From a virus: a stretch of DNA of 36,562 bases. The stretch covers positions 1 through 36,562 of IMG/VR virus record IMGVR_UViG_3300040770_000423, one strand, 5' to 3'. Within the stretch, counting starts at the first letter, position 1. Each line of letters begins with the position of its first letter. A program made the position numbers and the translations under genes. The notes beneath the pieces were generated by a model. That model was not told where the DNA came from. It did no database searches and saw only the letters and a program-made list of their open reading frames with translations. Below, piece after piece: positions 3,138 to 3,811 of this stretch.

Positions 3138-3305
3138 ATGAAGAAGAACCAAAAAACCCTGAAAGACCGCGAAAAGTACGTTAAGGAACAAGTTAACCAG
3201 CGTCACAAAAGTCTAAACGCGACCGACGTAGTTCGCGACTTAGCCAAACGCCTTTTCTTGTCTGAAGATACAATTTGGAAAGACTTCGCAAAACAAAAAA
3301 AATAA
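3138..3305 (+). CDS. Small basic protein (55 aa) with a helix-turn-helix-like C-terminal segment; putative regulator
   Basis: Manual translation MKKNQKTLKDREKYVKEQVNQRHKSLNATDVVRDLAKRLFLSEDTIWKDFAKQKK. Its stop overlaps the next ATG (TAATG at 3303..3307). Below the ORF-track size cutoff. Confidence 0.55.
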   Translation: MKKNQKTLKDREKYVKEQVNQRHKSLNATDVVRDLAKRLFLSEDTIWKDFAKQKK

Positions 3306-3811
3306 TGAAAAACTTAATCAATTCTTTTGTCGCTTATTTCGGGTTTTCGCCTGTCTTTCAATTAGCCAACTTTCGAAAAGCTGAAGCAAGCTTTGCGGAA
3401 CTTATTTCCTTAGAACAACAAGCAATATCTTTTGTTCAAAACTCTTTAAAAGTTATAAATAACGCCGTAAGAAGCGAATTAAAGCGAAACGGCTACAACC
3501 CCGAAGACATTTTAGAAGGCAAAATAAAACTAAACGCGACGCCGACGGAATCAAAAAAAGACGCCCGTTTTAAAAGCCAAATTTATAGCGTTAACGGTTA
3601 CGCAATTTTACGCGTAAATTGGAAACCGAATGGCTTCACATTGGAAACAAATACGGCGGAACAGGCTGCAATTCACAAAAAGGAAATGAAAGCCGGAACC
3701 GCCGGAACTCGCGACGAAAAAAAGCTTTTATCTAAAGAAAAAGACAACGTTGAGGTCGAAGCCTTGGCAAATAAAAAAATATCTGAAGAAAAGACGCTAA
3801 AAAAGGTTTAA
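3305..3811 (+). CDS. Hypothetical protein (168 aa), second gene of the opposite-strand cassette
   Basis: ORF-track entry 3275..3811. I prefer the internal ATG at 3305 (MKNLINS...), which is translationally coupled to the upstream 55-aa ORF. The hydrophobic N-terminus and K/E-rich tail match no family I recognise. Confidence 0.6.
   Translation: MKNLINSFVAYFGFSPVFQLANFRKAEASFAELISLEQQAISFVQNSLKVINNAVRSELKRNGYNPEDILEGKIKLNATPTESKKDARFKSQIYSVNGYAILRVNWKPNGFTLETNTAEQAAIHKKEMKAGTAGTRDEKKLLSKEKDNVEVEALANKKISEEKTLKKV

Follow-up and report, generated by a model that had tools for sequence, protein, structure and literature searches.

Why do two small genes stand on the plus strand in the midst of phage head genes that are read from the minus strand? 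This question is raised by the virus sequence IMGVR_UViG_3300040770_000423 from IMG/VR, which was analyzed over its full length of 36,562 nt (hereafter the window). The two genes, at positions 3138..3811, encode a protein of 55 amino acids with a helix-turn-helix (HTH)-like segment (p55) and a protein of 168 amino acids (p168), and this cassette is placed between the genes for a conserved head-module protein (p167) and for a ClpP-type head maturation protease. The first-pass annotation regarded the cassette as an accessory, candidate anti-defence locus in the slot in which Mu-like phages such as JBD30 carry anti-CRISPR (Acr) genes together with an HTH regulator (Aca), and, as it found no TAnnTTTG box for the protease, capsid and tail genes, it suggested that their expression might depend on read-through or antisense transcription across the cassette. 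The anatomy of the locus and the positional analogy are retained here, whereas the accessory turnover, the Aca/Acr nature and the promoterless read-through idea are not. Our preferred reading, to which we give slightly less than an even chance, is that the cassette represents a conserved regulatory module at an internal, P_I-like promoter of the Mu-like head cluster, where p55 would act as a local regulator on repeats that are phased by 11 bp.

Conservation of the cassette

The open reading frames (ORFs) of p55 (3138..3305, plus strand, ATG start) and p168 (3305..3811, plus strand) were confirmed, and they are joined by the motif TAATG, in which the ATG of p168 overlaps the TAA of p55, in agreement with the proposed pair of translationally coupled genes. 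Both are real coding genes, because the ratios of nonsynonymous to synonymous substitution rates (dN/dS) in comparison to relatives amount to 0.07-0.18 for p55 and 0.14-0.18 for p168. The nearest cultured relatives identified by megablast and tblastn are the Flavobacterium phages vB_FspM_lotta8-1, vB_FspM_lotta8-2 and pippi8-1 (Winoviridae, Pippivirus), with the FPSV phages of F. psychrophilum at a greater distance. Only Pippivirus and FPSV phages were found among cultured phages by these searches, and a p55 query of the type that is encoded on the same strand as the head genes (see below) retrieved none. Pippivirus comprises virulent myoviruses (PMC7077304), and the structural genes of the Winoviridae are Mu-like (PMC8776804).

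A survey of relatives with p167 as anchor recovered 74 IMG/VR loci. Both cassette genes occur in the same slot and in the same orientation in all 12 close IMG/VR loci, in phage FPSV-S1 and in the locus L080. In lotta8-1 they correspond to gp033 (p55) and gp032 (p168), again with the same slot and orientation, and are annotated as 'hypothetical'. The p168 homologue of FPSV-S1 (L002, MK764442) has a length of 166 aa and shows 24-31% identity; the p55 homologue of this phage (L002 4780-4974; positions 13531-13689 of the record) lies in the same slot and is absent from the GenBank annotation. One distant p168 homologue (P0037) was found behind a small p55-like gene, between protease-side and p167-side genes.

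The comparison of the window with lotta8-1 revealed identities of 61% for p168 and 76% for p55, next to 57% for p167, 68% for the G-like protein, 56% for the protease and 78% for the capsid protein. Hence, the identities of the cassette proteins track those of their structural neighbours, and together with the low dN/dS values this is what core genes show when they are kept by purifying selection, and not what would be expected of a fast-turnover anti-defence island. Among distant relatives the slot holds other genes, namely three small opposite-strand genes, one of them with a DUF4177 domain, in L078 (6134-6783), and two or three same-strand genes of approximately 160-300 aa before the protease gene in L033 (4496-6787), L048, L053, L054 and L037. 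No function was found in Pfam scans of these extra slot genes. The junction before the protease gene accepts insertions at deep divergence. The notion of an accessory, variable locus was thus not borne out by the comparison of relatives, since both genes are fixed in the close clade and the slot content varies among distant relatives only.

The p55 family and its genomic contexts

Close homologues of p55 number 12 (73-91% identity), and a profile search built from diverse copies yielded at least 234 homologues of 47-76 aa. Scans of Pfam, PHROGs and PADLOC gave no significant match for p55, its best PHROG match being phrog_36256 ('unknown', E 0.0014), and there is no Pfam or PHROG model carrying a function for the family itself. 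p55 belongs to an undescribed family of small HTH proteins. The HTH assignment, made in the first-pass annotation for a segment of p55, is upheld at the level of the family because three observations agree. The Pfam model HTH_11 was matched by a third of the members (23 of 66 at E < 0.01, best E 4.7e-6), the p55 profile gave weak LuxR-type matches among the PDB sequences (ComA(-C), E 0.026; GerE, E 0.058), and the AlphaFold2 (AF2) model of p55 is a three-helix bundle with helices at residues 5-20, 28-39 and 43-52 and a mean predicted local distance difference test score (pLDDT) of 92.8. A few members in the same sample of 66 match GerE/DeoR-type Pfam models.

The genomic contexts of these homologues indicate what the small HTH protein could be needed for. 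In the survey anchored on p167, many distant relatives that lack p168 turned out to have a p55 homologue immediately upstream of the protease gene, and this on either strand: it is encoded opposite to the head genes, as in the window, in L016, L020, L025, L039 and L042, and on the same strand immediately after p167 in L013, L015, L023, L034, L047, L055, L057 and L059. When p55 itself was used as anchor, the protease gene was located downstream in 13 of 19 viral loci, some of which have no detected p167 or G gene upstream; of the other six, four reach no further than approximately 900 nt beyond p55, and the remaining two, L095 and L084, extend further with no protease match. A stand-alone p55-like ORF is also present in bacterial genomes (79 of 80 loci), where it is found directly upstream of a sheath gene in 9 of 80 loci and no protease or capsid gene was detected nearby. 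Moreover, a divergent gene for a LexA/CI-like repressor with HTH_3 and Peptidase_S24 domains is situated about 0.9 kb from p55 in 65 of 81 bacterial loci, mostly from Chryseobacterium and Flavobacterium. An S24 repressor was not found among those window ORFs that were scanned, which represent a part of the total. A small HTH gene that tracks the starts of structural operons in either orientation, also where capsid genes are not detectable, is most simply explained as a transcriptional regulator of those operons and not as an Aca-type guardian of a payload gene.

Some of the bacterial and viral loci deserve a separate remark. The sheath-linked p55 genes of Aquimarina, Tenacibaculum and Dokdonia are accompanied by a Winoviridae-like sheath (L077:6001-7561, L100, L101, L103, L151, L165, L169, L172, L176 and L179), and these loci look like tailocin or contractile-particle clusters. 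In L131 (2376-4111), p55 is followed by a Lys-rich ORF of 58 aa, an ORF of 125 aa whose hydrophobic segments are membrane-like, and a protein of more than 900 aa, and in L111 (2982-4165) an Amidase_2 gene lies downstream of the p55 homologue.

The control region and the transcription units

The protease gene (1881..3062, minus strand) and the p55 gene diverge from a control region of 75 bp between their ATG codons (3063..3137), which has a length of 75-77 bp and conserved blocks in 10 relatives including FPSV-S1. Promoters of Bacteroidota typically carry a -7 element with the consensus TAnnTTTG and a -33 element TTTG or TTG. As stated in the first-pass annotation, an exact TAnnTTTG box does not occur in the window between 3063 and 3137; however, boxes with one mismatch are present, among them TAATATTG at 3067..3074 on the minus strand, which lies 4 nt before the protease ATG and is invariant in every close relative. 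In L013/15, L020/21, L034, L037 and L059 the protease ATG is preceded at a distance of 4-6 nt by an exact TAnnTTTG box, and in L023, L046 and L057 this distance is approximately 18-20 nt. Neither TTG nor TTTG was found at -33 on the protease strand of the window, a position at which some relatives have TTG. Given the promoter geometry of Bacteroidota, transcription from a -7-type box at a distance of 4 nt from the ATG would begin at or beside the start codon and thereby result in a leaderless or near-leaderless mRNA. Its sequence and position suggest that TAATATTG is a candidate leaderless promoter of the protease-capsid unit. The proposed switch by read-through or antisense transcription has lost its premise, because this promoter-like box precedes the protease ATG in all close relatives.

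In the opposite direction, a candidate promoter of the cassette extends over 3089..3119 on the plus strand. It consists of TTG at 3089..3091, a spacer of 20 nt and TTATTTTG at 3112..3119, the end of which is 18 nt upstream of the p55 ATG. Relatives share both the TTG and the TTAWTTTG block, and the arrangement would make a good host-type promoter for the cassette. Between and partly within these elements lie three direct repeats, GTCGTTTAT, CTCTTTAT and GTCTTTAT (3097..3126, plus strand; repeat family D4), with starts at 3097, 3108 and 3119, i.e. with a phasing of 11 bp. The phased repeats recur in relatives, and the exact tandem motif occurs only once in the window genome. Judged from the sequence, they represent a candidate operator of p55. 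They overlap the -7 box of the cassette, which suggests autoregulation, and they lie at -36 to -64 from the protease ATG, which is the position expected for an activator site of the protease promoter; hence, p55 would control, and probably activate, the protease-capsid unit.

A further element, TTTACT at 3127..3132 on the minus strand, lies 70 nt upstream of the protease ATG. It conforms to a TYTACT motif that several lineages carry at -70 to -74 (once at -60) relative to the protease ATG, whichever the orientation of p55, and this argues for an element of the protease promoter rather than of the p55 leader. Genome-wide searches for the tandem repeat motif and for the arrangement 'box, 4 nt, ATG' gave no sign of a wider p55 regulon in the window genome. 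In L034, L057 and L046, a subgroup with p55 on the same strand, a 17-nt element ACTGACACGTAGGAAAC with the core ACTGACAC is conserved approximately 50-70 nt upstream of the protease ATG, which may be a lineage-specific operator.

The cassette is closed by a bidirectional intrinsic terminator at 3881..3910, which was already noticed in the first-pass annotation and which on the minus strand also ends the unit of the portal, F, G and p167 genes. The hairpin forms in either direction (-15.7 and -14.9 kcal/mol, z -4.2 and -4.9), and each time it is followed by a U-tract, of 8 U on the plus and 5 U on the minus strand. A hairpin is present at the equivalent position in 10 relatives, and its conservation at the same place with different stem sequences points to a selected feature. 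Another strong terminator was found after the capsid gene (714..746, minus strand; -19.4 kcal/mol, z -6.3). With these two terminators, the protease and capsid genes form a short terminator-flanked unit.

The partner protein p168

The second protein of the cassette offers fewer links to known families. For p168, 24 close homologues were found, most of them on contigs of 35-37 kb, which are 167-172 aa long except for two shortened versions of 139 and 120 aa. All of them begin with MK(N/K/R) at the ATG, and the TTG start at 3275 that a program had listed is not used by the homologues. An exhaustive search with the p168 profile of 1.84 billion representatives gave 16 clusters only, so that there are no distant relatives to lend a function. 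The absence of a recognizable family, as originally stated, was confirmed: p168 has no match in Pfam (including Acr families such as PF20829), PHROGs, PADLOC or, by profile search, the PDB sequences, and Foldseek searches with the model found nothing in the PDB and only the own family in BFVD. In the AF2 model, which is confident (pLDDT 81), the 30 N-terminal residues are ill-defined and precede a long helix that leads into a sheet of four antiparallel strands; after a short helix, the chain ends in a long C-terminal helix rich in Lys and Glu. A conserved core (helix, four-stranded sheet, helix) covers about residues 35-130. Outside the clade of Flavobacterium phages p168 is missing, even where p55 and the entire head module are present. 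Thus, p168 is a lineage-specific protein that is translationally coupled to p55 and, going by the predicted model, has a new fold. The suggestion of an anti-defence protein received no backing from these searches with hidden Markov models and structures, in which no Acr or anti-defence model, solved sequence or fold was found. The N-terminus was also considered as a transmembrane or secretion signal; this was rejected by visual inspection, as the segment is only moderately hydrophobic, contains no Cys, is modelled with low confidence and is missing in FPSV-S1.

A regulatory model and its relation to known systems

In the model that we prefer, p55 would be a small stand-alone HTH DNA-binding protein, whose family marks the start of a high-copy structural unit, which is protease-capsid in phages and sheath in tail-like elements of Flavobacteriia. 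It would be transcribed from its own host-type promoter, back-to-back with a -7-only and probably leaderless protease promoter, and it most likely binds to the three phased TC(G)TTTAT repeats between both promoters. The protease gene would be the first gene of the unit under p55 control, and this unit would be insulated by the terminators on its two sides. The role of p168 in this scheme might be that of a partner or modulator of the regulator, which is the most economical guess, or that of a host-directed early protein.

Several points weigh against this model. The p55 of the window itself reaches only 14 bits with HTH_11, of which the cut-off is 25, and Foldseek found nothing significant for its model in the PDB; HTH regulators are among the weak matches, including Mor of phage Mu (1rr7, E 5.5, query-normalized TM-score 0.60, probability 0.25), and searches without a significant match are common for domains of 55 aa. 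The model leaves the role of p168 unexplained, and p168 is absent from most relatives that bear p55. The repeats could simply be sequence of the cassette promoter, and the neighbourhood of S24 repressors in bacteria would fit a Cro-like role as well. Moreover, the same-strand relatives L034 and L057 carry a complete -33/-7 promoter before the protease gene, and for these phages repression or no regulation fits as well as activation. Finally, the literature on these phages contains no function, proteomics or transcript data for p55 or p168.

In how it may work, the cassette resembles two known pairs of regulator and promoter. In phage Mu, the late promoter P_I before the protease/scaffold gene splits the head genes in two, and the activator C is encoded elsewhere. 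Likewise, a separate promoter-like box and a terminator upstream of the protease gene split the head genes of the window, and a small HTH protein would serve this promoter. Differences exist in the size of the proteins, which is about 55 aa for p55 and approximately 130-140 aa for C and the related Mor, and in the location of the p55 gene at its proposed promoter; no Pfam Mor match was obtained for the 66 sampled family members, and the fold match to 1rr7 is insignificant. The second analogy is with PrtN/PrtR of the R- and F-type pyocins. The bacterial p55 homologues beside a divergent S24 repressor gene or upstream of sheath genes recall the logic of a small activator that is released by the SOS response and switches on the operon of a tail-like particle, and Pfam scans of the 66 members gave no PrtN match. 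At the level of the domain, p55 is similar to GerE/LuxR and HTH_11 proteins in being predicted as a minimal helical DNA-binding domain, but it is shorter, with three helices and no fourth helix for dimerisation. By analogy, the cassette may thus represent a small HTH protein with which the phage regulates a late structural promoter, and which in one clade was joined to a protein of orphan fold.

A wider formulation combines these elements, and we regard it as possible but doubtful. The p55 family would then comprise unrecognised minimal late-gene regulators (about 50 aa) of phages and tail-like particles of Flavobacteriia acting at -7-only leaderless promoters of protease-capsid or sheath genes, which in bacteria would be wired under LexA/CI-like repressors, and the Pippivirus/FPSV clade would have gained the co-translated p168 with its new fold. 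Within this formulation p168 could be a co-regulator or an anti-defence protein.

Alternative explanations

The likeness to the JBD30 acr-aca locus from which the first interpretation started is real in its synteny, since the slot, with the PF05069 G gene on one side and the protease/scaffold gene on the other, is homologous and the JBD30 order reads gp34 (PF05069), acrIF1 (PF20829), aca1 and gp37 (PF10123, Mu-I protease), and in both cases the partner of a small HTH gene is a small gene that belongs to no general family. In JBD30, however, acr comes first and aca last and both are co-oriented with the head genes, whereas here the pair begins with the HTH gene and runs on the opposite strand, p167 intervenes, the partner is conserved in the close clade and the HTH gene stands alone in most relatives. 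An operon in which p168 inhibits a host defence and p55, as an autorepressor of the Aca kind, damps the strong promoter of the cassette would be consistent with this slot, with the pairing of a small HTH protein and a new-fold partner, with the opposite-strand location of a cassette that has both a host-type promoter and a terminator to itself, with the overlap of the candidate operator and the cassette -7 box, and with the filling of the slot by other genes in distant relatives (in L078 by three small opposite-strand genes, and in L033, L048, L053 and L054 by three larger ones). Nevertheless, we consider it quite unlikely. p168 is fixed throughout the clade and evolves like its structural neighbours, and p55 occurs alone and in both orientations in most relatives and next to sheath genes or S24 repressors in bacteria. 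Furthermore, there is no homology to Aca1, the Pfam Acr families, PADLOC models or solved Acr/Aca sequences or folds; the comparison of p55 with JBD30 Aca1 by hhalign gave a probability of 3%, no Aca chain appeared among the PDB sequence matches, and the cassette has no sequence relation to AcrIF1 in Pfam. Gene order, strand, stand-alone occurrence and the Aca1 comparison all disagree with an Aca-like regulator, and with the conserved slot and the purifying selection a candidate anti-defence locus is unsupported. A function of p55 as a Cro-like local autorepressor of an early or moron cassette, which has no effect on the protease-capsid promoter and in which p168 is an early host-takeover or superinfection-exclusion protein, appears unlikely as well. 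It would account for the host-type cassette promoter that is overlapped by the repeats, for the bacterial homologues that lie opposite to CI/LexA-like repressors as Cro-type genes do, and for the complete promoter before the protease gene in some relatives. In many relatives, however, p55 is located on the same strand between p167 and the protease gene, where only the structural unit is left to be regulated; it precedes sheath genes in clusters without detected capsid genes, and TYTACT keeps its distance to the protease ATG in either orientation of p55.

Two other explanations concern mainly the partner protein. p168 as a head assembly or structural protein (e.g. a chaperone, decoration or internal protein) on the other strand, the synthesis of which is timed by p55, could explain its presence inside the head module of the whole clade, an evolutionary rate like those of p167, the G-like protein and the protease, and its long charged helices as they occur in many scaffold-like proteins. 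This is improbable given that p168 is absent from most relatives sharing the head module, that late structural genes are not usually transcribed from a host-type promoter on the opposite strand, that no fold match to virion proteins was found in the PDB or BFVD, and that the protein is not annotated as structural in the Pippivirus genomes (PMC7077304). That p168 is the toxin and p55 the HTH antitoxin of a toxin-antitoxin or abortive-infection pair is hardly credible: the small HTH gene in first position, the overlapping stop and start codons and the own promoter and terminator are shared with such pairs, but p168 has no toxin-like family or fold, and the pair resides in the head module of a virulent-type phage (PMC7077304). 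This candidate was rejected, as p55 exists without p168 in most phage loci and in all bacterial loci examined.

Head module and other features of the window

As a complete circular assembly, the window covers an entire, circularly permuted phage genome of 36.5 kb. It has an exact terminal direct repeat of 45 nt (1..45 = 36518..36562), and its ends are bridged by a sheath-like ORF of approximately 400 aa. Nearly all genes are carried by the minus strand. Pfam and PHROG scans confirmed the neighbours of the cassette as described in the first-pass annotation. The Portal_Mu gene (6574..7872) lies upstream of the genes for a Mu F-like minor head protein (5003..6577, minus strand) and a Mu G-like virion morphogenesis protein (4424..4822, minus strand; PF05069, E 9e-8; phrog_26), and p167 (3921..4424, minus strand; phrog_6911, E 3e-17) is the final gene of this upstream unit. 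Hence the gene order is G-like, p167, cassette and ClpP protease, with p167 as an extra gene between G and the slot. On the other side of the cassette, the ClpP-type protease (PF00574, CLP_protease, E 9e-16; phrog_2976, E 2e-23) has a scaffold-like C-terminal part and is followed by the major head protein (765..1844, minus strand; phrog_267, E 8e-31).

Some observations on these neighbours are independent of the cassette. An HExxH motif (TVHEFAHV) is located in a C-terminal extension of the Mu F-like protein, which also weakly matches PF07737, the anthrax lethal factor domain (E 0.0014), and may be a virion-borne metalloprotease. A Cys-rich ORF of 59 aa (CFNC...GGC; 4822..5001, minus strand) between the F and G genes is kept in lotta8-1 as gp029, and its product may bind zinc. 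In FPSV-S1 a Dcm-type methylase gene is found between the F-like and G-like genes, which represents an accessory insertion at another head-module junction. A second plus-strand block (22063..24265) contains genes for an SSB-like protein (phrog_8542/1192) and an SMC/SbcC-like AAA ATPase (phrog_1499). It is located between the ends of the minus-strand array, so that this array is indeed broken at one place only. The block diverges from a helicase gene, the ATPase shows weak LmuB/AbiL/Gabija-type PADLOC matches, and the block is probably an early recombination or replication unit.

Implications

The case also calls for caution in the mining of genomes for anti-defence genes. Synteny with an acr hotspot and the combination of a small HTH gene with an unknown gene are insufficient, as the HTH gene here belongs to the conserved core and its partner is fixed. 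As far as we know from the literature searched, late-gene regulators of Bacteroidota phages have not been described. With its tracking of the capsid or sheath operon start across Flavobacteriia phages, prophages and tail-like clusters, p55 is a concrete candidate for such a late regulator, and it is easily testable with lotta8-1, pippi8-1 and the FPSV phages, which are all in culture. Moreover, the apparent leaderless promoter before the protease gene may offer a simple model for late transcription in Bacteroidota.

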